Below, piece by piece: positions 19,639 to 50,613 of a stretch of DNA of 64,000 nucleotides. Numbering within the stretch: position 1 is the first letter of the stretch; every line of letters starts with the position of its first letter. The notes beneath the pieces were generated by a model. It made no database searches, was not told the origin of the DNA, and saw only the letters and a list, made by a program, of their open reading frames with translations. The position numbers and the translations under genes are program-made. This DNA comes from Nitrospirota bacterium (lineage in GTDB: Bacteria; Nitrospinota_A; UBA7883), in NCBI GenBank assembly GCA_024275315.1, contig JAJRZK010000049.1, positions 74,577 through 138,576 on the forward strand, in the 5' to 3' direction.

Positions 19639-19783
19639 CGATTATGCTGATAACCTGTTTATAAACAGTGGATTTTTGGTTGTTCGGAAAATTTCGCCAT
19701 AACTTTTGTTGTAAACTCGGTTTCGTGATTGTAGAATATCAACGTAGACCAAGAGAAGTATTTCTGGTCTGTATCTTAGGAGT

Positions 19784-20377: not shown

Positions 20378-20402
20378 TAATGAAACGGGCTGTCCTTATG
20401 AC

Positions 20403-25552: not shown

Positions 25553-25704
25553 GCTTTAGGGAAGCAGTGATTTTAAAGCTGACCGGCGCCCATGTCAAAT
25601 ATTAAATTTGAACCGATGACAGTCGAGCTTTTTGGCGTGGCGCGCGGCGCGCGGTTACGCTTGCCATGGTTGCCTGGGACGCGGGTTTGGGCTATACATA
25701 ACCC

Positions 25705-35004: not shown

Positions 35005-37125
35005 TTACGCCCTGTCATGCAGAAAAACGAACGACAAAGCGTAAAACCCCATGGCGATGAGTATCAGCGAGCTCAAGCCGGTGATATAGCTGACACTCTC
35101 CGACAACCCCCCCACCAGAGCCCCGAAAAGGTTATACGCCAGGGCGCGCCGGGCGACCTGGGCCTGTGCGAACGATCGGGCGAACAGGTATCCTATGATG
35201 GTGAAGGGGACAAGGTACAACAGCGCCACAAGGTTGGACTCCAGCGGTGTGAAATAGGCCACCGCCAGTGCAACGCCAAGTGCGGCGTAAATGGCTGTGT
35301 ACGGCGCGCGCCTGGTTCGCCACAGATACAGGATGTTGGCGATGAGTATGGCGATCAGTATCAGGGATATCACGATGGAGCTTACTATCCATGTCGAGCC
35401 CCAGAAAAGGGTGAACCTGCTGATGACGGAAACCTCCAGCAATAAAAACCCCGCCCCCAGGGATGCGAAATGAAAATCCTCTTTTCGTGGCGCTCCGAAA
35501 AAGTATATGTAAACGAACACGAATATCCCCACGAGCAGGACAGAGACTGTCAGGTGAAGCTCCGGTATCGAGCTGGTCTTGACGTATAGATATGGCCAGT
35601 CGTCGGTTTGGACCTTCGACGGAGTTTCCTTGAAGAGAGTTTTCATTTTCCGGCTGTGCTCCGCGAGACCCTTTATGATCTTGTCTCCGCTGATCCGCTC
35701 GTTGAGCAGGGCGGAATCCCTGCTGGCGATAAAATATGTCCCCCCGGTGCCACGGATAAAAAACCGGTCCGATGGAAAATAGAACACGAACGGATCCTCG
35801 CCGAACTGGCGCTCCACCATTTTATGGATTTTGGACCCGATCCACGGAAAAGTGACCTGGAACGACAGGGCCAGCACCCCGTCATCCTTCAAGTGGCGTT
35901 TCATATCCCCCACGCTTTGAAGCGTGTACATGTAGCTGTCCAGGTTCGTGTTGGAGAAGTTGGATGTCAACGTGTGGGAATCCAGGAGGCCGAGCACGAT
36001 CAGGTCGTATTTGTCATCGCTGTTTCGCAGGTAGTTCCGGGCGTCGTTGTTGATGATGGTCACCCTGTCGGACAGGTATGGTTTTTCCGGATGATAACGT
36101 TTTCCCAGGGATATGATCACCGGGTCTATCTCCAGCGCGGTGACATGCTTTACGCCCGCCCGCAGGGCCGCGGCCACATCGTTGCCTCCGCCCGCCCCCA
36201 AAACCAGCGCACCGTCCAGCCGTTTGGGGAAATTATATGGAAAATCATAATAGGAATATCTGTCGCGCCATTTCGGAAAGAGGCGGGGATGCTTTTGCCG
36301 GAGAGGATCGCTCAGGTCGAGCAGGTACATGTATATCGTGTGGTTGGTTTGCAGGGAATAGTAATCTACACGCTTTGCGCCGTCTATATCCGCATAGGAG
36401 AATATCTCCTTGCTGAAGTTTATTTTCTGGTAGGGGGACCATATTTCCATGCCCCTGGCCCGCGTCTCTGCGTGTGTGAAGGAAATGCCGACTATTGCGA
36501 TGAGCGTGGCGATCATGATGGTCTTGGCCCTGCTCCAGCTCCACACGGCAAGGATGATGGCCATGGCCGTCAGGTACCACGTGAAAGGTTTTAGAGTCGC
36601 AAAACTTATAATCGCGAAAAACCATACACCGAGGATCGACCCGATTATGTTTATTGAATAGTCGAGTATCCTGTTTTTCGACCTGTCGAATATTTGCGCC
36701 AGCGCCTGTCCCATCGGGACCATCGCCGCCATAATTACAAAAAACAGAGCCACGAGCATGACCAGGCCCGATATGAAGGGAAGCCATCCGGAGTAGCCTG
36801 TCTCCGACCATGTGTTAAATCCGCCCACGTTCAGCAATTCCGATATGGACGCGAAATTCGACGCGGGATTGGTAAGCAGAGCTATGACCGCGACGCAGAT
36901 CACGGTGACCGACAAGCAAATTTTCGGGCGGTACAAGTAGCCGAATCCGAGCCCAAGGAACGCCCCGATCAGGGCGAGATTCTTGAAATAAGCGAAAATC
37001 CTTATTTCGCTGGCGAGATGCCGGATGAGCATGATTTCGATATAGAGACTCAGGAAACTCAATATCAGCAACAACACCCTGTCGTCACTGAACGGTTTCC
37101 GGGGCGTGACGGTGTCTTGCATCAA
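35005..37125 (-). CDS. Polytopic membrane protein fused to spermidine-synthase-like (aminopropyltransferase/SAM-MTase fold) domain
   Basis: More than 10 predicted TM helices. 'LVLGAGGGNDVAAALRAGVKHVTALEIDPVII...DLIVLGLLDSHT'. Confidence 0.7.
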   Translation of the reverse strand: MMQDTVTPRKPFSDDRVLLLILSFLSLYIEIMLIRHLASEIRIFAYFKNLALIGAFLGLGFGYLYRPKICLSVTVICVAVIALLTNPASNFASISELLNVGGFNTWSETGYSGWLPFISGLVMLVALFFVIMAAMVPMGQALAQIFDRSKNRILDYSINIIGSILGVWFFAIISFATLKPFTWYLTAMAIILAVWSWSRAKTIMIATLIAIVGISFTHAETRARGMEIWSPYQKINFSKEIFSYADIDGAKRVDYYSLQTNHTIYMYLLDLSDPLRQKHPRLFPKWRDRYSYYDFPYNFPKRLDGALVLGAGGGNDVAAALRAGVKHVTALEIDPVIISLGKRYHPEKPYLSDRVTIINNDARNYLRNSDDKYDLIVLGLLDSHTLTSNFSNTNLDSYMYTLQSVGDMKRHLKDDGVLALSFQVTFPWIGSKIHKMVERQFGEDPFVFYFPSDRFFIRGTGGTYFIASRDSALLNERISGDKIIKGLAEHSRKMKTLFKETPSKVQTDDWPYLYVKTSSIPELHLTVSVLLVGIFVFVYIYFFGAPRKEDFHFASLGAGFLLLEVSVISRFTLFWGSTWIVSSIVISLILIAILIANILYLWRTRRAPYTAIYAALGVALAVAYFTPLESNLVALLYLVPFTIIGYLFARSFAQAQVARRALAYNLFGALVGGLSESVSYITGLSSLILIAMGFYALSFVFLHDRA

Positions 37126-37186
37126 CTGTTAAATCTGGTCAATGATATATCTGTTAAAAAATGAAAGACCGGCCCGGATGGCCTGG

Positions 37187-38044
37187 TCAGAAACGCAACA
37201 GCGTGTCGATCGCGAACTCGAAAAATCCGGCGCTCACGGCGCGCTGTCCGCTGGCCTGGGTTTTGGTGATTATCGATGAGGCTGGCGCCGCCGCTCCTGT
37301 CCATTCTCCCGTATACCAATGGCCGGACCCCCTGAAATCGGGAAAAGACGGCGCTTCGGGCGCCGGCCATACGTAAACATAAAAATATGGCTCCGCAAAA
37401 TTTTCGTCACCGCAGGAGAGTCCCGCCCCGATCATGCTGTCACCACCATGCCTGCCGGTAAAAGAGAACACCGTGGCCATGTCGAAATGATGAGGCCAAA
37501 CCCTCACCTCGGATGAGCCCTCGCGCGTATCGGCGACTTCATGAAGCGCCAGATCCGCGTTGGCCATGTACCTGTCGAACTCCTCGAGGCTTCGTTCAAC
37601 ACCATGGATGGAAAATGGATCCCCCGACCGGAGACCGTGATCCGGCAGACGTTCCGTGTTTATCGCAAGCTTTGACGGGTCCAGGCCGAAACCGGACACC
37701 GCGCCCTTCAGCCAATCGAACGCTTCGTCGACCGTTTTGCCATCCAGCGCAAGCGACGCCAGCGGGTTGGAATGGTCGCCCCCATCCTCGACAAGCGCAA
37801 GCTTCAGCGCGGATATATCGAGAACGCCGCGCAGTCGAACGCTTCCATCCGCCACGCCGGACATCAGGACACCGTCGGCCCATTTCATGCTCACGTGCCC
37901 GTAATCCTCCTGCGGCTCCATATAGCAGGCTCCTATCGCCGAAGACAGCTGTGACGCGTAATGAAGTCTCATCCTGGCTTCGACAAGGTCGGTGGGCGGG
38001 ACCGCGCCCAGCTTGCGCCACGTCCTGTTCGAATTTTTCATCAA
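37187..38044 (-). CDS. Hypothetical protein co-oriented directly downstream of egtD
   Basis: 285-aa ORF, 44 nt after the egtD stop. No recognised motif. Confidence 0.45.
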   Translation of the reverse strand: MMKNSNRTWRKLGAVPPTDLVEARMRLHYASQLSSAIGACYMEPQEDYGHVSMKWADGVLMSGVADGSVRLRGVLDISALKLALVEDGGDHSNPLASLALDGKTVDEAFDWLKGAVSGFGLDPSKLAINTERLPDHGLRSGDPFSIHGVERSLEEFDRYMANADLALHEVADTREGSSEVRVWPHHFDMATVFSFTGRHGGDSMIGAGLSCGDENFAEPYFYVYVWPAPEAPSFPDFRGSGHWYTGEWTGAAAPASSIITKTQASGQRAVSAGFFEFAIDTLLRF

Positions 38045-38087
38045 TATAATCTCCCCTTGCGGCGTCCCGGTTACAACAGCGGCGCCG

Positions 38088-39083
38088 TCATCGTTTAACC
38101 AGCTCTGTCAATGAGAACCAGCGATCATCGTTCGTATACCACCTGTCCACCCTCAGCCCGGCGGATCTCACCATCCGTTCGAGGCTTACGCGGCTGAACT
38201 TGCGGCATATCTCGGTTCGGATGGTTTCACCAGACATGATCGCAACTTCGATCCCCGCGCCTGCGATCTCCACCTCCATATCCTCACAGGCTTCAAGGTG
38301 CATCTCCACTCTCTCCAGTCGCGGGTCGTAAAACGCCCTGTGGACGAAAAGCGAATGGTCGAAATCCGCGTCGAGCTCCCGGTTGATCACCGTCAGTATG
38401 TTTTTGTTGAACAGCCCGGTCACCCCGGCGGAGTCGTTGTACGCGGCCTCGAGAATCTTTGCGGGTTTGATCATATCGGCGCCCAGCAAAAACCTGTCAT
38501 CGTCCCTCATCGACCCGGCTACACATTCCAAAAACTCCTGCGCCTCGTTTTCGTCCAGGTTGCCGATGGTGCCCCCAAGGAACAGGATCAGCTTCGGTCG
38601 TTCTCTCTCCAGCCGGTCGAGGTTCCGGGTGAAATCGGTCACTATACCCATGATATTCATGTCGGGATACATTTCCAGCATATCCGAAGACGCCTCGATA
38701 AGGGCGGAATGGCTGATGTCCACCGGCACATAACGCAAACCCGCCCTGCGACGATGGTCTATGGAGGTAACCAGCTTCCTGATTTTCCAGTTCGCCCCGG
38801 AGCCGAGCTCCACGATGTCGCCATGAGAAAAGCCGTCCATGATTTCCGGCCCGTGTTCGTTTAGCAGTTCCATCTCCATCCGCGTCTGGTAATATTCCGG
38901 AAGATTGCAGATTCTCTCGAAAAGCTTGGAGCCGGCGGCGTCGTAAAAATATTTGCATGGCACACGTTTTTGCTCTTCGCAAAGCCCCTGCCGTATCTCC
39001 TCGGCCACGCTTTCCACGGCGCCGTTCCCGGGGTTTTCATACACCGTCAGCCTGTTGCAGTCACTCTGATATATAACAGTCAC
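38088..39083 (-). CDS. egtD: L-histidine N-alpha-methyltransferase EgtD (ergothioneine biosynthesis)
   Basis: 'KYFYDAAGSKLFERICNLPEYYQTRMEMELL', 'ELGSGA', 'YVPVDIS' match EgtD/DUF2260 hallmarks. Confidence 0.8.
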   Translation of the reverse strand: MTVIYQSDCNRLTVYENPGNGAVESVAEEIRQGLCEEQKRVPCKYFYDAAGSKLFERICNLPEYYQTRMEMELLNEHGPEIMDGFSHGDIVELGSGANWKIRKLVTSIDHRRRAGLRYVPVDISHSALIEASSDMLEMYPDMNIMGIVTDFTRNLDRLERERPKLILFLGGTIGNLDENEAQEFLECVAGSMRDDDRFLLGADMIKPAKILEAAYNDSAGVTGLFNKNILTVINRELDADFDHSLFVHRAFYDPRLERVEMHLEACEDMEVEIAGAGIEVAIMSGETIRTEICRKFSRVSLERMVRSAGLRVDRWYTNDDRWFSLTELVKR

Positions 39084-39105
39084 GAACCATCTCCTCGCTT
39101 AAGGA

Positions 39106-42100
39106 TTATCTGCACGGCGCGAACCGCACGACGCTCGAAGACTCCTCCACGACCTCGCGGAGGGATCTGGCTGCATGGTCTATATCATCATCGACACAGT
39201 CATGCCCCAGCGAAAAACGAACGGAGCAATGGGCCTCCTCCTCCGACAACCCCATGGCGAGCAACGCGTGGGAAGGGTCGGGCGACCCGGACCGGCACGC
39301 GGACCCTGATGACAGGTAAACACCCTTCCTGTCCATCGCCAGCACCACCGATTCGCCTCGATACCCGGGCAGTGTCATGTTCAGCGTGTTTGGAAGCGAC
39401 GGCCCATGTTCAGGTCCGTTAACAAAGGCTTCCGGCGTTATTTTCATTATCTCGCCTCGCAACCGGTCACGCATGGCGGCGAGTTTTCCCATCATGGACA
39501 GGCGAGACGGGATCAGTTCGGCCGCCTTGCCAAGGCCCGCTATCGAGGCGACGTTCTCTGTCCCCGCTCTTAATCCCCCCTCCTGCGACCCTCCGTGCAC
39601 CAGTGGTTCGACCCGGACCCCCTGGCGTATGTAAAGCGCCCCCACACCCTTGGGGCCGTTGAACTTGTGGCCGGAGAGGCTCAGCATATCCACGCCCAGT
39701 TCCTTTACATCCACATGGATTTTCCCCAGGCCCTGCACCGCGTCGGTATGAAATATCATACCTCTGGTCTTGGCTATTTTCGCCATCTCGGCTATCGGCT
39801 GGATCGCGCCGGTCTCATTATTCGCCATCATCACGCTTACCAGGATGGTGTCGGGGCGTATGTAGTCTTCAAGATCGCCAGGGTCGAGCAGGCCGCGGGT
39901 ATCCGGGGCGAGGCGCGTTATCTCGAACCCGAATTTTTCCAGCCACCGGCATGTCGACCCGACGGCCGGGTGCTCTATGGCGGATGTTATTATATGCCGG
40001 CCTTTGTTCCGGTGGGCGAACGCGGCGCCTTTTATGGCCAGGTTGTTCGCCTCGGACCCGCCGCCGGTGAATACGATCCTTCTTGCGGCGCAGTTGAGCG
40101 CCACGGCAAGCTTGCGGCGGGCGGCTCCGACGGAGAAGCGGATTTGCGCTCCCTTGGTGTGGACGCTGGAGGGGTTTGCGTAGTGTTCGGTCAGAAAAGG
40201 CTCCATTGCGGAGGCCACCTCCGGATCCATTCGGGTGGTGGCGTTGTTGTCCATGTAGACCTGTCTTTCTGCAGTCACACCCTCCTGGAAGGATCCGGAA
40301 CTTTCACACACCTCCGCAATTTCGCCAGAGCCGATGACAACGCACGATGTTTCGGACTCCACCGCGCTCACCTGGCAAAGCAGGGTCTTGTATATGGGAA
40401 ACCCCGATATGGGATCGTAACGGCTGATGTCGGTCAGTTCGTTCACGTTGCATCTGCGCCAGGCTTCCGGCCCGACCGGCCCGCCGCCGCCCATGTTCGC
40501 GTCGACGGAACCTTTGACAATATCATCTGTCACCATCGCCCGGAATTTTACTTTTCCCCGCGCGGTTGTCACATGCACCATGTCGCCGTTTTTTATTCCC
40601 CGGCTTTCGGCGTCTTGTGTATTGATTGTCACAGTCGGCTCCGGCCGTTCCTTCACCAGCGAAGGTATGGAGTGGAACTGCGACCGGAAATCCGTGGTTA
40701 CCCGCGATCCGGAATTGAACACCAGCGGGAACCTGTCCGCCAGGTCCGGCCTGCTCAAAGGGCCCTCTACAGGTTCCGTGTACACCGGCAGGGGGTCGTA
40801 GCCATGCTCTTCTAGTATGGTGGAGTGTATCTCGAATTTGCCGCTGGGTGTGTCGAACCCCGGGGCGCCGTCCGGCCTCAGCGTCCCTTTCTCCCATTTC
40901 TTGTATTGGCTCATCGCGGTTGGTTTGCGGATGATCCCGCCCGCTTCTTTCGCGTCCTCCAGGCTGTAGCCGGACCCTTCCAGAGCATGGCGCAACATCG
41001 CACGCTCGTCTTTCGGGTAGGCGCCGGCGTATCCCAGACATTCGGCGAGACCGGTTAATATGGTGTAGTCGTTACGCGCTTCGCCTATCGGTTCGATCAC
41101 CTTTTCCCGCAGCCGGAATATCGGCCCATATGTCATATATGAATCTATTTCGTAATAGGTGGTCGCAGGCAGGACGATGTCGGCGTAGGCGCTGTCGGCC
41201 GTCAACTGCCGATCGACACACACGAGAAAATCAAGAGCGTTTAACGTCTCTTTCCAAACGCCGCTCTCCGGCCAGGCGGTGATGATCGATCCGCCCAGTG
41301 TTATCAGCGCGCTTATTTTGTACGGTTTGCCGCGCAGCACCGAGTCCGGCAGGGATATCGCGTGCGACTCGCCCCTGTATTGGCTGTAGACAGGGAACCG
41401 GTCCCTGCCGAGGGCCTTTTTCATGTCCGGGTTGGGGATGTGGCCGGACCTGTTTATGGGAAAGTGGTTGTCCCTCATGGAGAAACACCTGCCGCCGGGG
41501 GTATCGAGCTGGCCGGCCAGCGCCCATAGAACCTGGGTGGCGCGGATCGCCTGCACTCCGCTGTCGCTGTACTCCAGCCCGCTGTACATGACAGGAGACG
41601 CTCCCCTGGCTTCGGCTATGCGGCGCGCCAGCGACCTCACCGTCTCCGACGGGACACCGGTCACGCTCTCCACGGTCTCCGGCCGGAAATGCTGCACATA
41701 CCGTTTCAGGTCGTCAAAGCCCAGTGTCCAGTTGTCGACGAATTTTTCATCGTACAACTCCTCCTCGATCAGGACGTTGATCATGCCAAGCGCCAGCGAC
41801 CCGTCGGTGCCTGACCTTATGGGTATCCATTGCGCCCCTGTGGCCTTCGCCGTGGAGGTTCTTCGAGGGTCTATCACCACAACCTCCGCCCCGCGTTCCC
41901 TCGCCTTTATTATCCTGTTGAAATCAAGAGGCGGGCAGTCGGTCGCCGGGTTGGCGCCCCATACGACCACAAGCTCCGCGTTCTCTATGTCCGAATACAT
42001 GTTGATCAGCATTCCGCCGCAGGTGACATGGGGGGCGATCATGGCGAAGGAGACATAGCACAGCGCTCCAACTCCCAGGGTGTTGGGCGAACCGAAAGGG

Positions 42101-42516
42101 AACAACACGCTCGACGCTGATGACACCGCCACCCCCTCCGGCTGGAAAATGTCGCACAGGGAAAGCTCGAAACTGCCGCGCCCGGTGTAAATCGCCGTCG
42201 CCTCAGGCCCCTGGTCGGCTTTGATCCTGTTGAATTTTTCGGCGATGGATTCGTACGCCTGGTCCCATGTGATTCGCTCGAATTCGAACGTCCCCTTGGG
42301 ACCCACCCGTTTCATGGGATATCTGATCCGGTCTTTCGAATAAACAATTTCCCTCGAGTGTTCGCCGAGTTTGCAGATCATGCCAAGATCGGAAGATTCG
42401 TCGGCGCGGACTTTGTCTATCTTCCCGTCGGAGTCAAAAGTGACGACAACCCAGCATCCGGCCGGGCATATGCCGCAGATACATTTACGTTCGGCAGTGT
42501 TGCTTTTACCTGGCAT
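39106..42516 (-). CDS. Fusion of molybdopterin/tungstopterin oxidoreductase (MopB) domain with C-terminal cysteine desulfurase (NifS-like); metallopterin-dependent ergothioneine synthase (MES)-like
   Basis: N-terminal 'CICGICPAGC' Fe-S motif and MopB-like body. C-terminal 'YMDNNATT...SAIEHPAV...SLSGHKFNGPKGVGALY...SSGSAC' class-V aminotransferase domain. Adjacent to egtD. Confidence 0.75.
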   Translation of the reverse strand: MPGKSNTAERKCICGICPAGCWVVVTFDSDGKIDKVRADESSDLGMICKLGEHSREIVYSKDRIRYPMKRVGPKGTFEFERITWDQAYESIAEKFNRIKADQGPEATAIYTGRGSFELSLCDIFQPEGVAVSSASSVLFPFGSPNTLGVGALCYVSFAMIAPHVTCGGMLINMYSDIENAELVVVWGANPATDCPPLDFNRIIKARERGAEVVVIDPRRTSTAKATGAQWIPIRSGTDGSLALGMINVLIEEELYDEKFVDNWTLGFDDLKRYVQHFRPETVESVTGVPSETVRSLARRIAEARGASPVMYSGLEYSDSGVQAIRATQVLWALAGQLDTPGGRCFSMRDNHFPINRSGHIPNPDMKKALGRDRFPVYSQYRGESHAISLPDSVLRGKPYKISALITLGGSIITAWPESGVWKETLNALDFLVCVDRQLTADSAYADIVLPATTYYEIDSYMTYGPIFRLREKVIEPIGEARNDYTILTGLAECLGYAGAYPKDERAMLRHALEGSGYSLEDAKEAGGIIRKPTAMSQYKKWEKGTLRPDGAPGFDTPSGKFEIHSTILEEHGYDPLPVYTEPVEGPLSRPDLADRFPLVFNSGSRVTTDFRSQFHSIPSLVKERPEPTVTINTQDAESRGIKNGDMVHVTTARGKVKFRAMVTDDIVKGSVDANMGGGGPVGPEAWRRCNVNELTDISRYDPISGFPIYKTLLCQVSAVESETSCVVIGSGEIAEVCESSGSFQEGVTAERQVYMDNNATTRMDPEVASAMEPFLTEHYANPSSVHTKGAQIRFSVGAARRKLAVALNCAARRIVFTGGGSEANNLAIKGAAFAHRNKGRHIITSAIEHPAVGSTCRWLEKFGFEITRLAPDTRGLLDPGDLEDYIRPDTILVSVMMANNETGAIQPIAEMAKIAKTRGMIFHTDAVQGLGKIHVDVKELGVDMLSLSGHKFNGPKGVGALYIRQGVRVEPLVHGGSQEGGLRAGTENVASIAGLGKAAELIPSRLSMMGKLAAMRDRLRGEIMKITPEAFVNGPEHGPSLPNTLNMTLPGYRGESVVLAMDRKGVYLSSGSACRSGSPDPSHALLAMGLSEEEAHCSVRFSLGHDCVDDDIDHAARSLREVVEESSSVVRFAPCR

Positions 42517-42616
42517 GCGGAACAGGTAAATCGGGAGTACTCATCGATCCGACGCCCTCCATCATTGTCGCGGATTGAAACCTAGTTTACTACGATCTCA
42601 TATTTTAGACTCGATA

Positions 42617-44200
42617 TCAAACCGGCCGTGGTTTGCCCACATGCGGTATCGGGGTATATAGGGATATCTCGTCGCAGGTGGTGGCGATATCGTCCAACGA
42701 CAGGTCGTGAATGTTCCCATGCCCGCATATGCGTGCAAAATCAGCCAGTTGACGTTTTGTGGTTTCAAAAAACGACGCCAGCTTGGCCGCGGACGTGTCC
42801 ACATCCAGCCTTTTGCGCAGGGTTTCGTCCTGGGTGGCTATTCCAACGGGGCACCTGCCGGTATGGCACGCCCGGTATTGCTGGCATCCTATGGCCATCA
42901 GGCTCGACGTGGCGCACGCCACAGCAGTGGCGCCCATGGCTATGGCTTTCGCGAAATCCGACGGAACACGAAGACCGCCTGTGACCAGGATGTCGGTCTT
43001 GACCCCATGTTTGACCATAAAGTCGATGACGCGGCTTAATGCGTAGAAAGTGGGGACGCAGATGTTTTCCTTCACATGTTTCGGTGCGGCCCCGGTGGCC
43101 CCTCCGCGTCCGTCGATTGTTATAAAATCAGGTTCGCATTCCAGCGCGGCGGCAAGATCCTCCTCCACCCTGCTTGCGGCGAATTTTATCCCGACCGGTT
43201 TTCCCGATATGTTCCGCCTTATCTCCATCACCCTGGTTTTCAGGTCGGCCGCCGATCGGATGTCCCTGAAATGCGAAGGTGAAATAGCGTCCTGGCCCGG
43301 TTTCAATCCCCGGACTTTCGCGATTTCCGGTGTCACCTTTTTCCCTGGCAACATCCCGCCCATGCCGGCCTTGGCCGCCTGGCCGATCTTGATTTCCACA
43401 CCGTCCGCTTTTGCCATCGCCTCGTCTGTCCAGCCGAAATATCCGCTGGCCATTTCCAGGATGTAAACCCCGGCGCCATCTCTCTCATCGTCGAGCATTC
43501 CACCCTCGCCGGAGCATATCATCGTTCCAGCGCTCGCCGATCCTTTAGCCAATGCGATTTTCGCTTCTCGCGAGAGAGCGCCGAAGCTCATATGCGAAAC
43601 GTAGACCGGCAGGCTGATCGTGACGGGGTTGGCGGCGGATTTGCCGATTATGGTGGAAAGCTTTACCGGTTCGTCGTCGTGCAGGGGGAACGCGGCCAAT
43701 TGGCGTGGCAGAAACACGACCTTCGACCAGAGGTTGTCCTTGCGCTCGGGTCCCATCGGGTCTGTGTATCCATGCTCTCCCACGTAGCCGTCGGCCATGT
43801 GGTGGATCATTTCCATATCCCGCTCGATATCGTCCTGCCGCCTGCGCCAGGGGTCGAGGTAATCGCCCAACGGGGGCTGGGTCTGTTCATCCGGAACGTC
43901 GACGTACAATCCGTCGCTCCGGATCTCCACCCTGTATGTCCGTATCCTGTCCTGCGGGTTATAGGACGACACCCCGGTGGCGAGGTCGAAATTCCATTTG
44001 TGCAAACCGCATACGATCTCGCCGGTCGCGGTGTTCAACGACCCGTCGCAAAGCTGTCCTCCACGGTGGGGGCACCTGTCGTCCACGGCGTAATAGTCGT
44101 CCCCGATCCTGGCGAGAAGCATCCTCCGGCCGCCGCCTTTTACGCACATTTTGTCGCCAGGGGCCAGCTCGTCTGTTTGCGCAACCTTGAAAAACACCAC
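42617..44200 (-). CDS. Rieske [2Fe-2S] domain fused to glutamate-synthase-type FMN-binding (GltS_FMN) domain protein
   Basis: 'CPHRGGQLCDG...CGLHKWNF' Rieske motif. 'ASGYFGWTDEAMAKADGVEIKIGQAAKAGMGGMLPGKKV' and 'ITIDGRGGATGAAP' are GltS FMN-domain motifs. Confidence 0.7.
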   Translation of the reverse strand: MVFFKVAQTDELAPGDKMCVKGGGRRMLLARIGDDYYAVDDRCPHRGGQLCDGSLNTATGEIVCGLHKWNFDLATGVSSYNPQDRIRTYRVEIRSDGLYVDVPDEQTQPPLGDYLDPWRRRQDDIERDMEMIHHMADGYVGEHGYTDPMGPERKDNLWSKVVFLPRQLAAFPLHDDEPVKLSTIIGKSAANPVTISLPVYVSHMSFGALSREAKIALAKGSASAGTMICSGEGGMLDDERDGAGVYILEMASGYFGWTDEAMAKADGVEIKIGQAAKAGMGGMLPGKKVTPEIAKVRGLKPGQDAISPSHFRDIRSAADLKTRVMEIRRNISGKPVGIKFAASRVEEDLAAALECEPDFITIDGRGGATGAAPKHVKENICVPTFYALSRVIDFMVKHGVKTDILVTGGLRVPSDFAKAIAMGATAVACATSSLMAIGCQQYRACHTGRCPVGIATQDETLRKRLDVDTSAAKLASFFETTKRQLADFARICGHGNIHDLSLDDIATTCDEISLYTPIPHVGKPRPV

Positions 44201-44221
44201 TTTAACACCTCGATTTACGTG

Positions 44222-44503
44222 TCATGGTGTAATTTCCACACCTTTCCAGAAAGCCAAACGGTTTTTAATCATTTCCGCTTTTTCTTTTGGCTCCGGATAA
44301 TACCATGCCGCGTCTTCATTGGTTTTTCCGCCCACATGGATGTGATAATAGCTGGCCCTGCCTTTCCATGGACACACAGAGGTTGACGAGCTTGGTTTGA
44401 AATATTCGCTGTGAACGGAATCGGACGGGAAATAGTGGTTCCCCTCGACTACGATCGTGTCGTCGCTCTGCGCGAGAATGGCGCCATTCCAGATAGCTTT
44501 CAT
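44222..44503 (-). CDS. DUF427-family protein
   Basis: 'AIWNGAILAQSDDTIVVEGNHYFP...VCPWKGRASYY...WYYPEP' is characteristic of DUF427. The ATG for 'MKAIWNG' is preferred over the longer track ORF. Confidence 0.5.
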   Translation of the reverse strand: MKAIWNGAILAQSDDTIVVEGNHYFPSDSVHSEYFKPSSSTSVCPWKGRASYYHIHVGGKTNEDAAWYYPEPKEKAEMIKNRLAFWKGVEITP

Positions 44504-44613
44504 AATATCGATCCCGGGTGTACTATTGTTATAAAGATGTTCGATCATTATAATCACGATGATGAAGCTTTGCGAAGTCGATTCTGCCTTGTTAGGAGAA
44601 TTATTATAACCGT

Positions 44614-46380
44614 ATGGCATCTTCCAACCCGGCAAATCCCCTGAGCGACATCGGCTATTTTCGTCGTTGCGTTCTTGCAGAGCTGAAAGAACCTTCGGTT
44701 TATTTCTTATCCATCATCATAGGATGCGGTATAAACCTGCTGTCCGGATCCCTGCACCTCGCTCCGTTTTATGTGCCCCTGTTTGTCCAGGTGCTTTCAA
44801 AAGCGTCGGTGCATTTCAACAGCAGGTTCGACAACCAGCTTCTCGAGCTTCCCTTGCAAAGAAAGGACCCGGCGTTTGTCATGGACTCCGGCGGAGATAT
44901 CATAATTTTGCCTGAAAAATTCAGGGATATTTTTGACAGCTCGTCCATCACGAGCATAAAAGACCTGGTGGACCCGCGCACCGCCGGGTTGATACTGGGA
45001 AAATTTCCTGCCGGATCCGATGAGCCTGCCGATATATCCATGGAGGCCTACTCCGAAACGCTGGGGAAATGGTACCTTGTCCACGCCAGACGCTCGCCGG
45101 GGGAAAACTCGATCAGGTCGGGGGCCATACTGGTCTGGTTGCAGGATGTGACACCCCTGAAACATTTCGACCAGAGCATGGCCAGCTTGCTGAATTTTAC
45201 CGGCGGGATCGTATCGGAGCTGGAGAGCATCGTCAAACGAAACGATATCTACGACAGGCTGGCCGACTTTGTTATCCACAGCGGGTGGGGCGGGGCGATG
45301 ATTACAAGGAAAGAAAAAGAAGGCGGCTTGAGCGGGAGGGTTTTCAAATTAAACGAGGACAACAAGATCAGCTCGAAGCGAATAACCTTCGACAAGAATT
45401 CGTCCGCGCCGGTGTTTCTGTCCCGAAAGACAGACAAGGTGGTGTCGGATGATGTGAGTAATTACGATTCCAGGGACACGTTTGAAAGCCGGTATCCCTT
45501 CGACCCCCGGGTCAAGAGTTTCATAGGCGAGGATATCGACAATTTTATCAACTACCACCAGGACGATATTTCCATAATCGTTTTCAACAAGGAGGGCGGG
45601 TCTTCCTTTTACGAACGCAGGTTCATGGAAACCCTTGTGGACATGTCCAGGACAATCGTATACCTGGTTGACCTTGCCATAGAGAACGACGAGCAGTTTC
45701 TGCAAAAGGTCATGGGGCTTTGCGCGGCGGCGGAATACAGCGACGAGATCACGGGGAAGCACATCGTGCGGGTGAACGAGTATAGCCGGTTTGTCGCGGA
45801 ACAAATGGGGATGGATGACAAGTTCACCGATTCTATCGGCAAAGTGGCCGCCCTGCACGACATCGGGAAGGTGGCCATATCCGAGCTTATCAAGCTTGCG
45901 AGAAAATATACAGACGAGGAGAGGGCGCGAATGCAGATGCACACGGTGTATGGAGCCCATATCATCGGAGAGATGATCAAGTTCGCTTCCAAAGAGGATT
46001 ATCGCCTCACCATGGCCAGGAACATAGCTTTGCACCATCACCAGACATACAACGGGAAGGGGTATCCGGGATTGAAGAAAAACGGGAACCAGGTTTCGCC
46101 TACTAGTAAGAACATGGAATTTTACGTCGACCTGGAGCCTCTTAGCGGTGATGAGATTCCCGTTGAAGGGCTGATGGTTGGTTTGGCGGACAGGTATGAC
46201 GCGCTTCGAAGCGCCAGGCAGTACAAACCGGAGTTTTCCCACGAAAAAACGATGGATATAATGCTTAAAGACGACAGGACAAGCGTTACCGGCGAACAAT
46301 GGTACGGTCCCGCGCTGTGGAGAAATTTTATGGAGAACCACGAAACTTTCGACCGGATTTTCGAGAAACTGAAAGATTGA
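44614..46380 (+). CDS. HD-GYP domain protein (putative c-di-GMP phosphodiesterase) with N-terminal sensory region
   Basis: 'ALHDIGK', 'ALHHHQTYNGKGYPG' HD-GYP signatures in the C-terminal third. Confidence 0.8.
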   Translation: MASSNPANPLSDIGYFRRCVLAELKEPSVYFLSIIIGCGINLLSGSLHLAPFYVPLFVQVLSKASVHFNSRFDNQLLELPLQRKDPAFVMDSGGDIIILPEKFRDIFDSSSITSIKDLVDPRTAGLILGKFPAGSDEPADISMEAYSETLGKWYLVHARRSPGENSIRSGAILVWLQDVTPLKHFDQSMASLLNFTGGIVSELESIVKRNDIYDRLADFVIHSGWGGAMITRKEKEGGLSGRVFKLNEDNKISSKRITFDKNSSAPVFLSRKTDKVVSDDVSNYDSRDTFESRYPFDPRVKSFIGEDIDNFINYHQDDISIIVFNKEGGSSFYERRFMETLVDMSRTIVYLVDLAIENDEQFLQKVMGLCAAAEYSDEITGKHIVRVNEYSRFVAEQMGMDDKFTDSIGKVAALHDIGKVAISELIKLARKYTDEERARMQMHTVYGAHIIGEMIKFASKEDYRLTMARNIALHHHQTYNGKGYPGLKKNGNQVSPTSKNMEFYVDLEPLSGDEIPVEGLMVGLADRYDALRSARQYKPEFSHEKTMDIMLKDDRTSVTGEQWYGPALWRNFMENHETFDRIFEKLKD

Positions 46381-46658: not shown

Positions 46659-47300
46659 ATGTCCCGCACAACAGCTCTAACAAAAGACGACCTTCTGCTG
46701 GTGGTGGATGTTCAGAACGATTTTTGTCCCGGCGGGGCGCTGGCTGTTCCCGATGGCGATCAGGTTGTTCCGGTGATAAACCGGCTGATGGGCCGTTTTG
46801 AGCATGTCGTCATGACCCAGGACTGGCATCCGCCGGATCATCTTTCCTTCGCCTCGGCGCACCGGGGCAAAACCCCGTACGAGACTGTGGAGCTTTCCTA
46901 TGGCGCACAGATCCTATGGCCGGACCATTGCCGGCAGGGGACTGATGGCGCCCGGTTTCATCCTGGTCTGGACGATTCGCGCGCGGAATTGATCGTCCGC
47001 AAGGGGTTTTGCCGGGAGATAGATTCGTATTCCGCGTTCACCGAAAACGACAGGAGCACCCCCACAGGTCTTACCGGTTATCTGCGGGAACGCGGGTTGA
47101 CCCGTTTATTCATCGTCGGGCTTGCAACGGATTTTTGTGTGCTGTACACCGCTCTCGACGCTGTCGAGCTGGGGTTTAAAGCTGTCGTGATCATGGAAGG
47201 ATGCAGGGGAATGGATGTCGAGGGGTCGATGGAGAAGGCCTGGGAGCGGATGCTGGAAGCCGGCGTGGGAAAAATCGGCGAAGCGGACATCGCGCGATGA
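46659..47300 (+). CDS. pncA: Nicotinamidase/pyrazinamidase PncA
   Basis: 'LLLVVDVQNDFCPGG', a catalytic Cys in 'ATDFCV', isochorismatase fold. Confidence 0.85.
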   Translation: MSRTTALTKDDLLLVVDVQNDFCPGGALAVPDGDQVVPVINRLMGRFEHVVMTQDWHPPDHLSFASAHRGKTPYETVELSYGAQILWPDHCRQGTDGARFHPGLDDSRAELIVRKGFCREIDSYSAFTENDRSTPTGLTGYLRERGLTRLFIVGLATDFCVLYTALDAVELGFKAVVIMEGCRGMDVEGSMEKAWERMLEAGVGKIGEADIAR

Positions 47301-48730
47301 CGTTTCCACGTTCGGGGCTGGCCACGGATCATTACCAGCTTACGATGATGCAGGGATACTTCGCCACCGGGCTGAACGGACGTGACGCCTGTTTCGACCT
47401 GTTTTTCCGCAGCAACCCCTTTAATGGTGGCTACACGTTAACCGCGGGGCTCGATGACGCTCTGCGGTTTTTAGAAGAGCTTCGGTTCTATCCGGACGAC
47501 ATCGAATATCTGGAGGGGCTGGGCCTGTTCGGGCCGGAATTCCTCGAGTACCTGGAGAGTTTCAGATTCACCGGCGACGTGTTCGCCGCCCCTGAAGGGA
47601 CTGTCATGTTTCCCACGGAACCTGTCGCAAGGGTAATCGCGAAACTGGACCAATGCCAGCTTGTGGAGTCGGCTTTGCTGAACATCATCAATTTTCAGTC
47701 CCTGATAGCGACAAAGGCGGCGAGGGTATGCCATGAAGCCGGAGAGGACAACGTGCTGGAGTTCGGGTTGCGCCGCGCCCAGGGGCACGACGGCGCGCTG
47801 ACTGCCGCGAGAGCGGCCTATATCGGCGGATGCGCGGCCACGTCGAACGTGGAAGCGGGCAAGGTATACGGCATACCCGTGCGTGGCACCCACGCCCATT
47901 CATGGGTCACGGCTTTTCCGGACGAGATAACCGCCTTCAGGAAGTTTGTTGAATTGTATCCGGACAACTCCATTTTGCTGGTGGACACCTATGACACGTT
48001 GAACAGCGGCGTTCCCGCGGCCATACAGGTCGGCCTGGAGATGAAACGAAACGGCCGCAAGCTTGCCGGTATCAGGCTGGACAGCGGCGATCTCGCTTTT
48101 TTATCCATCCGGGCGCGCAAAATGCTCGACGAAGCCGGGCTTGCCGATACGGCGATCGTCTGCTCCTCGGAGCTTGACGAGTTCATAATCCACGACCTTA
48201 ACGCGCAGGGCGCCAGGATAGATATTTTTGGAGTCGGCACGAAGCTGATAAGCGCCAATGGCGACCCTTCCCTGTCCGGTGTGTATAAAATGGCCGCCAT
48301 ACGGGAGCGGGGCGGACAATGGCGAGACACCATAAAAAAAACCGAGGGTTTGAAGAAAGCCACGTTGCCGGGTGTAAAACAGGTGTGGCGCCTGTTCGAT
48401 CACGATAACGAGATGATGGGGGACATCATAGAACTGGAGGACGAAAAACCAGATTTTTCCGGCGGTATACAGGGCGTACATCCCTTTCTCAAGGATGTCG
48501 GCAAAACTTATGATGGTATAAAATCCGCCGACAAGCTGCTGGCGCCTTCGATGGTTAATGGCCGCCGCCTGGCCGAATCACCGTCGCTCCTGCAAATACG
48601 CGCCCGGGCGAAAGAGGAGTTGGATCGACTGCATCCCACGACACGCAGGTTGCTTAACCCCCATGAATACAAAGTCAGCGTAGGCCCGCGATTGAACGAG
48701 CTCACGCAGAAGCTTCGATCCGCGCCGTGA
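47297..48730 (+). CDS. pncB: Nicotinate phosphoribosyltransferase PncB
   Basis: 'ATDHYQLTMMQGYF', 'DTYDT', 'GIRLDSGDL'. ATGA overlap with pncA. Confidence 0.85.
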   Translation: MTFPRSGLATDHYQLTMMQGYFATGLNGRDACFDLFFRSNPFNGGYTLTAGLDDALRFLEELRFYPDDIEYLEGLGLFGPEFLEYLESFRFTGDVFAAPEGTVMFPTEPVARVIAKLDQCQLVESALLNIINFQSLIATKAARVCHEAGEDNVLEFGLRRAQGHDGALTAARAAYIGGCAATSNVEAGKVYGIPVRGTHAHSWVTAFPDEITAFRKFVELYPDNSILLVDTYDTLNSGVPAAIQVGLEMKRNGRKLAGIRLDSGDLAFLSIRARKMLDEAGLADTAIVCSSELDEFIIHDLNAQGARIDIFGVGTKLISANGDPSLSGVYKMAAIRERGGQWRDTIKKTEGLKKATLPGVKQVWRLFDHDNEMMGDIIELEDEKPDFSGGIQGVHPFLKDVGKTYDGIKSADKLLAPSMVNGRRLAESPSLLQIRARAKEELDRLHPTTRRLLNPHEYKVSVGPRLNELTQKLRSAP

Positions 48731-48901
48731 CTTTATGAACACGAAAATTGGAGCTTTCCACATATGATCAGATGTTGTACAGTCGATAGATCTGGAACGA
48801 GTCTTGGAGGTGTACAAAGTTAAATGAGTTCCATCGTCCGCCATGGGCGGCGCATCGTTTCGTTGCGCCGGCTTTATTAATTTTCAGCAATAGGAGTAGA
48901 T

Positions 48902-49444
48902 ATGAGAAAGGGAATTTTTTTAACTGTGATGTTCGCCTGTTTTTTCCTGGTGATGTCTGTAGGCCTGTCCGAAGCGTCGAACCCGTGCAACCCGTGCAAT
49001 CCCTGCTCTAAAAAGACGGGCTCCAAGGGAGACGCCAAGAAGCAGATTCGAGCCAAGCATATCACTGATTACAAAAAGCTTGTCGCCATGGGCAAAAAAA
49101 TGTGGAACGACGAGAGCCTGAACGATTCAGGAATGTCGTGCATGACCTGCCATGCGGACCACGAGAACCTGAATCTCGACAAATACCACGGCTTGTGGCC
49201 CCACAACGTAAAAGGTATGACCGACGACATTGTCACTTTGTCCCAGATGATAAACTACTGCCTGATAAACCCGATGGAATCGAAACCGCTGGACTATAAC
49301 AGCATCCATATGACCGCCATGACGGCCTATTACAGGGAATACATAAAAACCTATAAAGGGGCAAATCCCTGTTCGATGAAAAACAACCCCTGCAACCCGT
49401 GCTCGATGAAGAAGAAAAATCCCTGCAACCCATGCGGTCGGTAG
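48902..49444 (+). CDS. Secreted monoheme cytochrome c flanked by N- and C-terminal (N)PC repeat motifs
   Basis: Signal peptide. 'SNPCNPCNPCS' at the N-terminus, 'CMTCH' heme site, C-terminal 'NPCSMKNNPCNPCSMKKKNPCNPCG'. Confidence 0.65.
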   Translation: MRKGIFLTVMFACFFLVMSVGLSEASNPCNPCNPCSKKTGSKGDAKKQIRAKHITDYKKLVAMGKKMWNDESLNDSGMSCMTCHADHENLNLDKYHGLWPHNVKGMTDDIVTLSQMINYCLINPMESKPLDYNSIHMTAMTAYYREYIKTYKGANPCSMKNNPCNPCSMKKKNPCNPCGR

Positions 49445-50613
49445 ATGTCGCACTACTAGCGCTATTGGTGTCGGCCACGGCTTTTTCGGGCCGGGCCGGC
49501 GCTTTTGAATTTACAGAGCACTGGCGCCAGCCCATACCGCTCCAGGGGCCGGTTCCACCCGGATTCGACGAGACCGAAAGCTCTCTCGATCCCGAAGACT
49601 GCGGGCAATGCCACGAGTCGCAATATAATGACTGGATCAAAAGCAGGCACGCTTTAGCCGCCGGTCCCGGCCTGATGGGGCAGCTACATCCGCCGTTTCT
49701 GGGAAGTGAGACGGTCGAGATGTGCCTGGATTGCCATGCGCCGTTGGGTGAGCAGAGGATATACGTCCGGGGGGAAAGAGGGAAGTATACAAAAAATCCC
49801 GATCTGGACGCCAAACTTCTGTCTAAAGGATTGACCTGCGCCGGATGTCATGTCCGCAAGCACAAACGGTATGGACCCGTTCCGAAAAAAACAGTGGATC
49901 CGCCACTGCCTCATGAAGGTTTTGTGGCGGTGGAAAACTTTGGATCGTCACGGTTTTGCCGCCCTTGCCACCAGTTCGAAAAGCATCACAGGAGGATAAA
50001 CGGCAAGCTTGTGGAAGATACGTACGAACAGTGGAAAAACAGCGAATACTCAAAAAAGGGCGTGTCCTGCGCCGGATGCCATATGCCCGGCAGGAGACAC
50101 CTGTGGAAAGGGATCCACGACCCCGCCATGGTGAAAAAGGGTATTCATATCGAAGCTGTCAAACAGGGTCGAGTCGTAAAGGTGACTGTGACAAACAGCG
50201 GAGCGGGGCACTATTTTCCCACTTACGTAACACCGATGGTCTTTGTGCGGTCGGCGGTTACGCTCCATGGCAAAACCGAGCTTGTGGACGAAAAATATAT
50301 CGGCTGGAACGTGGAACTGGACCTTTCAAAAGAGAATTTCGACACCAGGATACCACCGGGACAAAGCGTCTCTTTCAATTTCAATATGCCTGACAAGGCG
50401 GTGAAAGGAAAATTCACGGTGGCGGTCATCGTGTACCCGGACCGGTTCTACAATCGGTTTTTCCGATGGATACTCGACGCAAAACCCGAAGGGGCGGACC
50501 TTGCCATGATCGGGCGAGCGTTCAGGGATACGCAAAGCTCCCGCTACGTGTTATTCAGCAAAAGCTGGAAAGCGCTGGGGTTGATCAACCGGTCCGCCCC
50601 CTCGCCAAATTAA
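49432..50613 (+). CDS. Pentaheme c-type cytochrome
   Basis: Signal peptide. 'CGQCH', 'CLDCH', 'CAGCH', 'CRPCH', 'CAGCH'. Confidence 0.7.
   Translation: MRSVDVALLALLVSATAFSGRAGAFEFTEHWRQPIPLQGPVPPGFDETESSLDPEDCGQCHESQYNDWIKSRHALAAGPGLMGQLHPPFLGSETVEMCLDCHAPLGEQRIYVRGERGKYTKNPDLDAKLLSKGLTCAGCHVRKHKRYGPVPKKTVDPPLPHEGFVAVENFGSSRFCRPCHQFEKHHRRINGKLVEDTYEQWKNSEYSKKGVSCAGCHMPGRRHLWKGIHDPAMVKKGIHIEAVKQGRVVKVTVTNSGAGHYFPTYVTPMVFVRSAVTLHGKTELVDEKYIGWNVELDLSKENFDTRIPPGQSVSFNFNMPDKAVKGKFTVAVIVYPDRFYNRFFRWILDAKPEGADLAMIGRAFRDTQSSRYVLFSKSWKALGLINRSAPSPN

Follow-up and report, generated by a model that had tools for sequence, protein, structure and literature searches.

The closest described system is the MES/EgtD pair of Caldithrix abyssi (Beliaeva & Seebeck 2022, PMC9516567). 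There, a metallopterin-dependent ergothioneine synthase (MES) of 1136 aa adjoins EgtD, and the two make the antioxidant ergothioneine; the MES has the same two-module architecture as the protein described below, and acetylene hydratase is the enzyme nearest to its MopB part. CaMES, EaMES and hvMES are experimentally active, with ergothioneine made in E. coli. Rieske proteins and gene neighbours are not mentioned in the main text of that paper. In the aerobic EgtB/EgtD (and EgtA) clusters sulfur is inserted by the O2-dependent sulfoxide synthase EgtB, whereas the locus analyzed here uses MES; EgtD is common to both.

We analyzed a window of 64,000 nucleotides, that is the whole stretch of DNA, which comes from a genome different from that of C. 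abyssi (about 54% GC). Here MES lies within a cluster of six co-oriented genes on the minus strand (35005-44635). The original prediction had given MES and EgtD four companions on the same strand, and every ORF was found where it had been placed. The features are listed in the order of reading.

44576-44547, minus strand: sigma-70-like promoter match upstream of DUF427 (TTCGCA-18-TATAAT, 10/12 matches, a consensus match only)
44222-44503, minus strand: DUF427 protein (PF04248, E 3e-33); ORF extendable to 44635
42617-44200, minus strand: Rieske+Glu_synthase fusion, 527 aa (Rieske, residues 4-89; Glu_synthase, residues 170-493, E 8e-97)
39106-42516, minus strand: MES, 1136 aa (Pfam Molybdopterin, Molydop_binding and Aminotran_5)
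38088-39083, minus strand: EgtD, 331 aa (PF10017, E 9e-102; TIGR03438, 334.4 bits)
37187-38044, minus strand: 285-aa protein of an unnamed family (no family above cut-off; distant DUF5996 relative)
35005-37125, minus strand: 706-aa polytopic membrane protein with a SpeE-like domain (PF01564, 36.8 bits, residues 296-440)

Domain E-values ranged from 1e-33 to 1e-143, and chance is therefore excluded for the domain assignments. The gaps from DUF427 to the membrane-protein gene were 21, 100, 22, 43 and 61 nt, and no terminator-like sites were found in any of the five. The promoter match at 44547-44576 is a possible start of a six-gene transcript, and the true start of DUF427 is probably M45, at 44503. 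The same gene order was observed in a near-identical relative (locus L081).

The 1136-aa protein was predicted to join a MopB body to a complete NifS-like desulfurase, and both the Pfam domains and the motif CICGICPAGC at residues 12-21 agree with this. Its N-terminal part consists of the [4Fe-4S] motif and a bis-MGD MopB body, and its C-terminal part is a PLP-dependent cysteine desulfurase of the NifS/IscS type (TIGR03402 NifS, 475 bits). For judging the catalytic site we used the Cys and Lys residues of CaMES reported in PMC9516567 and its Table S1. The four Cys of the [4Fe-4S] motif (C14, C17, C21 and C48) occupy positions identical to those of CaMES. The Mo/W-bis-MGD ligand Cys153 is present within GVGALCYVSFA, the Schiff-base Lys is K951 in SGHKF (K952 in CaMES), and Cys1074, the persulfide Cys, is present together with Cys1097 and Cys1135. 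The protein thus lacks none of the residues with a demonstrated essential role in CaMES. Full-length identity was 62.6% to CaMES, 58.7% to EaMES and 54.7% to hvMES, values which are lower bounds, as the reference sequences were machine-read from the SI. The best PDB match of the MopB part was acetylene hydratase (2E7Z, E 4.5e-77).

Since the catalytic residues are kept, identity to three active MES reaches 55-63% and acetylene hydratase is the top match, the fusion is clearly assignable to MES. We regard it as scarcely credible that it is another sulfur- or selenium-transferring enzyme. The activity is assigned from sequence, and the organism does encode SelB, but the protein is nearer to CaMES (63% over its full length) than to EaMES or hvMES, it retains every essential residue and it adjoins EgtD.

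The EgtD gene follows directly after 22 nt, as had been predicted. Its product scored 334.4 bits against the NCBIfam equivalog TIGR03438 (cut-off 290.9) and was 33% identical to M. smegmatis EgtD, with the motifs YFYDAxG, LPEYY, VELGSG and FLGxTIGNL aligned. By these matches it is the predicted histidine N-alpha-trimethyltransferase making hercynine (TMH). The proposed O2-independent pair therefore holds, and it adds one more member to a known family that is widespread in anaerobes. In the proposed route EgtD would trimethylate histidine to hercynine and the PLP desulfurase of MES would take sulfur from cysteine. A persulfide relay through the equivalents of Cys1074 and Cys1135 would pass it to the Cys153-ligated Mo/W-bis-MGD centre, and MES would then insert it at C2 of the imidazole.

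A genome scan with MES gave 22 other true MES loci; the remaining 58 loci contained plain NifS and were reused as controls. EgtD adjoined MES in 14 of the 22, and betaine-type ABC transporters with fused binding domain and permease recurred beside other MES/EgtD loci. Co-occurrence of the companions with MES, on which the prediction of a MES-specific partnership depended, was not observed: none of the four was found within 10 kb of MES in any of the 22 loci (flank as the contig allows). In the locus whose MES is 71% identical (L082), no companion was present upstream of MES, and the 285-aa protein and the Rieske fusion were absent. As the module is missing from the 22 loci, it is dispensable for MES function, which agrees with the E. 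coli work performed with MES alone.

The Rieske::GltS-FMN fusion lies 100 nt upstream of MES, exactly as predicted. The Rieske ligand motif CxH...CxxH is present (C43-P-H45 and C64-G-L-H67; PF00355, E 2e-15), and the Glu_synthase domain contains a [3Fe-4S] motif, C439x5C445x4C450. The Rieske part best matched the shuttle ferredoxins that serve ring-hydroxylating dioxygenases; for the FMN part the match was the large chain of glutamate synthase. The fusion shares with that subunit the FMN-binding TIM barrel and the Cx5Cx4C motif. Unlike glutamate synthase it has the FMN domain alone, with neither amidotransferase nor GXGXG domain, and a Rieske domain is added at the N-terminus; it scored 156 bits against the glutamate synthase equivalog NF008730 (cut-off 1047), which places it outside that family. 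Homologues with 39-42% identity adjoined 285-aa homologues in 8 other loci. Near the three closest homologues examined (61-72% identity) there was no 285-aa protein, DUF427, MES or EgtD.

The 285-aa family comprises 3395 clusters at 50% identity. The window protein reached 16.8 bits against DUF5996 (PF19459), under the Pfam gathering cut-off of 25, as do most family members; the cut-off was passed by 2 of 10 diverse representatives, and 6 of 13 close members gave sub-threshold or marginal matches. Given the similar length (about 290 aa in DUF5996) and the weak profile similarity, we treat the family as a putative distant sister of DUF5996, of which the literature search found no mention. The invariant residues of the family (H28, Q32, D47, W183, P184, H186, D188 and Y220) are all kept in the window protein, in which conserved His, Asp and Tyr are numerous and an H186-x-D188 motif is present. 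No conserved Cys was found in the family alignment, and this ruled out a role as thiol-disulfide oxidoreductase. The AF2 model had a pLDDT of 92.5. No PDB homologue came up, either in a structure search with this model (Foldseek matches insignificant, E > 0.2) or when PDB sequences were searched with a profile, and the N-terminal and C-terminal halves showed no similarity that would indicate an internal repeat.

We assessed the neighbourhoods of 285-aa homologues in 86 metagenomic and plasmid loci; the 80 metagenome loci had been picked by similarity to the 285-aa query and many were short. Within 5 kb EgtB was present in 21 and EgtD in 11 of the 86 loci, and four diverse EgtB representatives all scored above the TIGR03440 cut-off. 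Rieske fusions within the same distance were of three types: Rieske::GltS (8 loci), Rieske::FMN_red (9 loci) and Rieske::TPP (5 loci). Together, Rieske-ferredoxin fusions lay beside the homologues in 18 distinct loci of the 86, from unrelated lineages, in varied orientations and including cases with overlapping stop and start codons. Three loci (L133, L134 and L137) held both Egt genes and a Rieske fusion. Flanks of 1.5 kb or more on each side were available in 31 loci, and 16 of these had an Egt or Rieske neighbour. When the homologues were clustered at 55% identity (47 clusters), Egt genes were found in 7 clusters and Rieske fusions in 12, and the Egt-linked members were spread over at least 5 clades. 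In the 58 control loci (1.02 Mb) there were no Egt genes, Rieske fusions or 285-aa homologues.

Several of these loci were packed like operons, with a 4-nt overlap in L141 and gaps of 24, 5 and 0 nt in L156; L087 has the order 285-aa homologue, ABC ATPase, OpuAC-permease, EgtD, EgtB. A fourth type of partner, an FNR-like FAD/NAD protein with a plant-type [2Fe-2S] domain, was found in two loci (L091 and L104), and on an Acaryochloris plasmid a plain NADPH-FMN reductase follows the 285-aa homologue. Betaine-type ABC transporters and GMC (choline-dehydrogenase-like) oxidoreductases were recurrent neighbours. Many homologues have no ergothioneine genes nearby, for example those in sugar/GMC loci or beside Rieske-TPP and carbonic anhydrase, and the family probably has several substrates. 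Literature searches on ergothioneine with Rieske proteins, and on the egtB/egtD gene neighbourhood, found nothing relevant.

For the two outer genes the results were different. DUF427 and the 706-aa membrane protein recurred only in L081 (89% identity for the latter). In the membrane protein the Spermine_synth-like domain is flanked by hydrophobic segments, about 8 on the N-terminal side (15-221) and about 6 on the C-terminal side (518-704); the protein reached 38 and 29 bits against the spermidine synthase equivalogs NF002010 and TIGR00417, well below their cut-offs of about 250-260. A Novosphingobium homologue, 25% identical, lies in an unrelated context, as do plasmid homologues of DUF427 with 58-63% identity; the only structure of the DUF427 family, 3DJM, comes from structural genomics. 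Neither export by the membrane protein nor sulfur handling by DUF427 found comparative support. The proposal that the companions are parts of the pathway thus survives for the 285-aa protein and Rieske::GltS, through their Egt/Rieske linkage, and lapses for the other two, which are co-oriented neighbours whose role in the pathway is not supported.

The best overall explanation, to which we give a probability of about 0.6, is that an O2-independent MES/EgtD route is accompanied by an accessory two-component redox enzyme made of Rieske::GltS and the 285-aa protein. Rieske::GltS-FMN would serve as electron-input and shuttle component (FMN to [3Fe-4S] to Rieske [2Fe-2S]), and the 285-aa protein would be the terminal catalytic component, probably metal-dependent. 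The strong and repeated linkage of the 285-aa family to EgtB/EgtD and to Rieske-flavoprotein fusions makes the two companions credible accessory components. We infer that the module is not specific to MES and has been recruited repeatedly to aerobic (EgtB/EgtD), anaerobic (MES/EgtD) and betaine-type ABC transporter loci; this recruitment suggests that its most likely substrate is ergothioneine or hercynine, or either of these in oxidised form. That the family and its flavin/[2Fe-2S] Rieske partners form an unrecognised two-component ergothioneine enzyme, common to the EgtB and MES pathways, is a tentative proposal that we hold at less than even odds. As to chemistry, searches gave no pointer from fold or sequence, and it is a weak and rather unlikely suggestion that the module uses electrons to restore ergothioneine from an oxidised form. 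A PLP-independent C-S lyase replacing EgtE in EgtB clusters was rejected as a general explanation, as MES makes no sulfoxide intermediate.

The net MES reaction has no electron requirement, which counts against a redox module, and in the window MES and EgtD sit between the two genes of the presumed partnership. The companions might be mere neighbours. In that case DUF427 would pair with Rieske::GltS in a unit of its own for redox or nitrogen metabolism, the 285-aa and membrane genes would be unrelated genes, and only MES/EgtD would constitute the pathway. Their absence near MES in L082 and the 22 other loci, the unrelated contexts of DUF427, the membrane protein and the closest Rieske::GltS homologues, the 100-nt gap before MES and the sufficiency of MES in E. 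coli all fit this reading. We nevertheless consider it unlikely, because the Egt linkage in 7 of 47 clusters stands against 0 of 58 control loci, Rieske fusions recur in 12 clusters and join Egt genes in three loci, the gaps are free of terminators, and the combination of Egt, Rieske and 285-aa genes in the window is improbable by chance.

Two further readings accept the module and give it other work. In one, its substrate would be a betaine (hercynine or ergothioneine, for instance), which would be broken down or turned into a further derivative by a step like N-demethylation or hydroxylation, and not recycled. The architecture of the module mirrors systems of reductase, Rieske ferredoxin and terminal oxygenase, the H-x-D motif, taken with a distal His, is reminiscent of 2-His-1-carboxylate iron sites, the transporters and GMC oxidoreductases are recurrent neighbours, and a 10.6-kb contig (L166) has transporter and module with no Egt genes seen. 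MES enzymes are, on the other hand, reported only from anaerobes, where an O2-dependent step fits poorly; catabolic genes inside biosynthetic operons such as L087 would be unusual, and the fold searches brought up no similarity to a known oxygenase. An oxygenase or demethylase of this kind is therefore a distinctly less probable option. Still more doubtful is a maintenance function, in which Fe(II)-EgtB and Mo/W-[4Fe-4S] MES would be reductively reactivated, or supplied with metal, by the module and the 285-aa protein would be a frataxin-like metal chaperone or adaptor: the structural matches were insignificant, many family members occur at loci that lack both EgtB and MES, and MES works in E. 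coli when the module is absent.

The value of the locus lies in its companions. An accessory redox enzyme built from Rieske::GltS and the 285-aa protein has no counterpart in the literature searched, where no enzyme cycling or processing ergothioneine downstream of its synthesis was found. With its flavin/[2Fe-2S] donor, and its place beside both types of Egt locus and betaine-type importers, the 285-aa family is a clonable candidate for such a post-synthesis step. If this is true, about 3,400 unannotated clusters with no solved fold would gain a function, and the fusion of Rieske domains to GltS-FMN, FMN-reductase and TPP modules would find its reason. If its role is regeneration, it would give the redox cycle of ergothioneine its first bacterial enzyme.

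Compared with aerobic Egt clusters, whose neighbours in several lineages (L087, L133, L134, L137 and the L109 clade) include a gene of the 285-aa family and a Rieske-flavoprotein fusion, the window differs in that its Rieske domain is fused to GltS-FMN and theirs to FMN_red. The EgtUV importer (bioRxiv 10.1101/2022.05.02.490363) offers a second parallel, as betaine-type ABC transporters likewise stand beside other MES/EgtD loci and several loci of the 285-aa family. Their order is SBD-TMD, against TMD-SBD in EgtU, and their ergothioneine specificity is only putative; the window contains no such transporter. The module is also like multicomponent Rieske oxygenase chains, where a flavin domain feeds a Rieske [2Fe-2S] centre, and the closest structures of the Rieske domain are BphF, CarAc and TodB. 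The presumed acceptor is likewise a separate protein, rich in His and Asp. Unlike in those chains, a single polypeptide combines reductase with ferredoxin, and the type of its flavin module is GltS-FMN/[3Fe-4S], FMN_red or TPP. The fold of the presumed terminal protein is unrelated and still unsolved; if the proposal is correct, Rieske ferredoxins would here pass electrons to a terminal component that is of a new type and has a new fold.

We found six ORFs on the minus strand of the window, all of them at the places and with the contents described in the original prediction.

Genes of the cluster, in the order of transcription
44222-44635, minus strand: DUF427 protein, probably starting at M45 (44503), the residue where the domain begins
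42617-44200, minus strand: 527-aa fusion of Rieske and Glu_synthase (FMN) domains (Rieske::GltS)
39106-42516, minus strand: 1136-aa fusion of Molybdopterin, Molydop_binding and Aminotran_5 domains
38088-39083, minus strand: EgtD
37187-38044, minus strand: 285-aa ORF; all family scores are below cut-off
35005-37125, minus strand: 706-aa protein, a Spermine_synth-like domain flanked by two blocks of hydrophobic segments

The gaps between the ORFs measure 21, 100, 22, 43 and 61 nt. No terminator-like sites were found in them, and a sigma-70-like site lies upstream of DUF427. Divergent from the cluster, at 44614-46380 on the plus strand, is a gene for an HD/HD_5-domain protein; an HD_5 protein also occurs in three Scalindua MES loci (L001, L002, L020; in L002 at 19678-20685). 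At 25476-27642 of the window a tRNA-Asp gene lies beside SelB, the selenocysteine-specific elongation factor; the organism probably uses selenocysteine. The region 46659-50613 encodes isochorismatase/nicotinamidase-like and nicotinate phosphoribosyltransferase proteins (NAD salvage), then a multihaem c-type cytochrome, which would fit an organism that lives by anaerobic respiration.

The large fusion and EgtD had been taken for a metallopterin-dependent ergothioneine synthase (MES)/EgtD pair, and alignment agreed with this. In MES, four N-terminal cysteines (14, 17, 21, 48) bind the [4Fe-4S] cluster, Cys153 is the ligand of Mo/W-bis-MGD, Lys952 is the PLP lysine, and Cys1074, Cys1097 and Cys1135 are further defining residues; the MopB part is kin to acetylene hydratase, the genes are co-encoded with EgtD, and the Caldithrix abyssi enzyme (CaMES), EaMES and hvMES all made ergothioneine in E. 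coli (PMC9516567). The window protein has C14, C17, C21, C48, C153, K951, C1074, C1097 and C1135. Its full-length identities to CaMES (62.6%), EaMES (58.7%) and hvMES (54.7%) are lower bounds, with reference sequences machine-read from the supplement of PMC9516567. The best MopB-type solved structure was acetylene hydratase 2E7Z (E 4.5e-77), followed by polysulfide/thiosulfate reductase, formate dehydrogenases and DMSO reductase, and the C-terminal part matched IscS/NifS. EgtD scored 334 bits (NCBIfam equivalog cut-off 290.9), and its substrate-site motifs aligned with those of M. smegmatis EgtD. Since the MES family is large, with thousands of matches at 65-71% identity (Scalindua, Nitrospirae, Zixibacteria, Desulfomonile and others), the core is, by its sequence, one more member of a kind already known. 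By homology, EgtD would form hercynine, and MES would take sulfur from cysteine and hand it over, by way of a persulfide relay and then the metallopterin centre, to C2 of hercynine.

We scanned one genome per species and obtained 22 further MES loci (L001-L022), in 14 of which EgtD adjoined MES. None of the four companions (DUF427, Rieske::GltS, the 285-aa protein and the 706-aa membrane protein) was detected near MES in these 22 loci (tblastn E ≤ 1e-5; flanks of up to 10 kb where the contig allowed), nor was a Rieske fusion or 285-aa homologue detected there at E ≤ 1e-8. The recurrent neighbour was a betaine-type ABC transporter, its ATPase in 7/22 loci and a fused OpuAC-permease, with the domain order SBD-TMD, in 4/22. 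The fused gene stood by MES/EgtD in L002, L004, L005 and L022, and the ATPase also in L009, L010 and L015. The six-gene order was otherwise seen only in L081, whose MES is 91% identical and which therefore belongs to the same lineage; there DUF427 is 74%, Rieske::GltS 93%, the 285-aa protein 82% and the membrane protein 89% identical. In L082, with a 71% identical MES, a chemoreceptor and a thioesterase lie upstream in place of the companions.

DUF427 and the membrane SpeE-like protein were found near no other 285-aa homologue and near no other MES in the loci searched, L081 apart. Among plasmid-borne homologues of DUF427, the nearest (58-63% identical) are surrounded by unrelated oxidoreductases; many more occur on enterobacterial, Pseudomonas and Acinetobacter plasmids. 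A Novosphingobium membrane 'spermidine synthase', 25% identical to the 706-aa protein, has an unrelated context. We treated both genes simply as co-oriented neighbours.

A word-indexed search gave no more than 13 hits to close relatives of the 285-aa protein, one of which, in L086, adjoined an EgtB-like gene. At 50% identity, a profile search gave 3,395 clusters, of which the best 150 were nearly all 260-305 aa long, with a single matched stretch each. Members mostly scored below the DUF5996 cut-off. Among 71 diverse members H28, Q32, D47, W183, P184, H186, D188, G208, Y220 and W243 were invariant, R24, H50, H136, R181, H185, D213 and Y222 were at least 90% conserved, and no cysteine was conserved. 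This site, rich in His, Asp and Tyr and with an H-x-D motif, may be a metal or proton-coupled redox site.

Scanning metagenomes for the invariant WPHHFD motif yielded 80 loci, and 6 further loci brought the set to 86, the window and L081 being left out. As tblastn queries against this set we used the proteins of the window and neighbours that had been recovered from the loci. The counts below refer to a sample chosen by likeness to the query, with many short contigs and mechanically called ORFs.

Genes within 5 kb of a 285-aa homologue
EgtB: 21/86 loci
EgtD: 11/86 loci
Rieske::GltS-FMN: 8/86 loci (full-length identity to the window protein 39-42%)
Rieske::FMN_red: 9/86 loci
Rieske::TPP-enzyme: 5/86 loci
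Any Rieske fusion: 18/86 distinct loci
GMC oxidoreductase: 5/86 loci
OpuAC-permease fusion: 4/86 loci

The Egt neighbours were genuine: four diverse EgtB representatives scored 415-603 bits on TIGR03440 (cut-off 360) and two EgtD representatives 379 bits on TIGR03438. Where at least 1.5 kb was present on both sides (31 loci), EgtB/EgtD occurred in 8, a Rieske fusion in 10 and either in 16. When homologues were clustered at 55% identity, 7/47 clusters were Egt-linked, 12/47 Rieske-linked and 3/47 both, and the Egt-linked homologues were spread over at least 5 clades of a neighbour-joining tree calculated without support values. The 285-aa homologue, Rieske::FMN_red and EgtB were all present in L133, L134 and L137, and L133 and L137 had EgtD and a transporter as well. 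In the same tree the closest relative of the window protein outside its own lineage was in L087. There the 285-aa homologue heads a co-directional run of ABC ATPase, OpuAC-permease, EgtD and EgtB; tandem-rhodanese and SufE-like proteins are encoded directly upstream (L087:8021-9369). The proposal that the companions are partners of MES failed from the MES side (0/22 loci), but the 285-aa family recurs beside EgtB/EgtD and beside Rieske fusions, so that the 285-aa protein and Rieske::GltS are credible accessory components.

Several loci showed other arrangements. In L141, Rieske::TPP, Rieske::GltS and the 285-aa homologue follow in order with a 4-nt overlap, and in L156 the order is Rieske::GltS, Rieske::TPP, beta-carbonic anhydrase and 285-aa homologue (gaps 24, 5 and 0 nt). 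These tight operons (L141:31-4534, L156:462-5569, and also L138:4977-9473) have no ergothioneine genes in view and are an uncharacterised module in their own right. A different 285-aa subfamily (L091:5312-14821, L104, and L167 on Acaryochloris plasmid pREC2) has SDR, aquaporin, GMC oxidoreductase and GH63-like glycosidase neighbours, which suggests a different, sugar- or compatible-solute-related substrate. Its further partner in L091 and L104 is an FNR-like FAD/NAD protein with a plant-type [2Fe-2S] domain; on an Acaryochloris plasmid the gene after the 285-aa homologue encodes a plain NADPH-dependent FMN reductase. In a soil-metagenome clade (L109:6139-12073), GCS2(EgtA)-EgtD-EgtB diverge from a 285-aa homologue and an Asparaginase_2 gene, a layout seen in about 15 related loci (L086, L099, L106, L120, L128, L145, L149, L157 and others). 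No EgtC or EgtE gene was in view in such loci, and the Asparaginase_2 Ntn-hydrolase might substitute for EgtC.

Both the Rieske ligands (CxH...CxxH) and the Cx5Cx4C motif of a GltS FMN domain are present in the Rieske::GltS fusion. Because its Rieske part is closest to soluble ferredoxin shuttles (BphF, CarAc, TodB, NDO ferredoxin) and is joined to a GltS FMN part, the fusion appears to combine electron input and shuttle in one protein. The partners of the 285-aa family are consistently proteins in which a flavin or TPP module is combined with a [2Fe-2S] domain, whichever module it is, and therefore Rieske::GltS may be the donor and the 285-aa protein the terminal component of a working pair. 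Since this pair stands by Egt genes of two unrelated chemistries and by betaine-type transporters, the shared element would be the metabolite and not the sulfur-insertion step. Our preferred chemistry, electron-driven regeneration of ergothioneine from an oxidised form, is a guess to which we give a probability of about 20-25%.

The rival readings are an oxygenase- or demethylase-type modification, reductive maintenance of metalloenzymes, and plain coincidence of the companions with MES/EgtD. Against a strict link, MES works alone in E. coli and the module is missing from the 22 other MES loci. Other surroundings were also seen for the three closest Rieske::GltS homologues examined (61-72% identical), one of which comes directly after a GMC oxidoreductase; the closest outside homologue (71% identical; L169:6414-9578) starts 4 nt after such a gene. 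Many 285-aa family members have no ergothioneine genes in their loci, so that the family as a whole probably acts on several substrates. As regards coincidence, EgtB/EgtD and Rieske-fusion neighbours were absent from 58 NifS control loci (1.02 Mb).

The accessory Rieske/285-aa module appears to be undescribed. DUF5996 was not mentioned in the literature searched, and the listed matches for ergothioneine with Rieske were trimethylamine-metabolism reviews or otherwise unrelated to biosynthesis. The main text of the MES paper (PMC9516567) mentions neither Rieske proteins nor gene neighbours, and a keyword search of a 2026 review gave no match for ergothioneine reductases, EgtU or proteins of unknown function.

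Compared with known systems, the SBD-TMD transporters of MES loci have the reverse of the domain order of the characterised ergothioneine importer EgtUV. The FMN part of the fusion is like that of the glutamate synthase large subunit, whereas the amidotransferase and GXGXG domains of that enzyme are absent. Its Rieske part is most like the soluble ferredoxins that act as shuttles in ring-hydroxylating dioxygenase systems.
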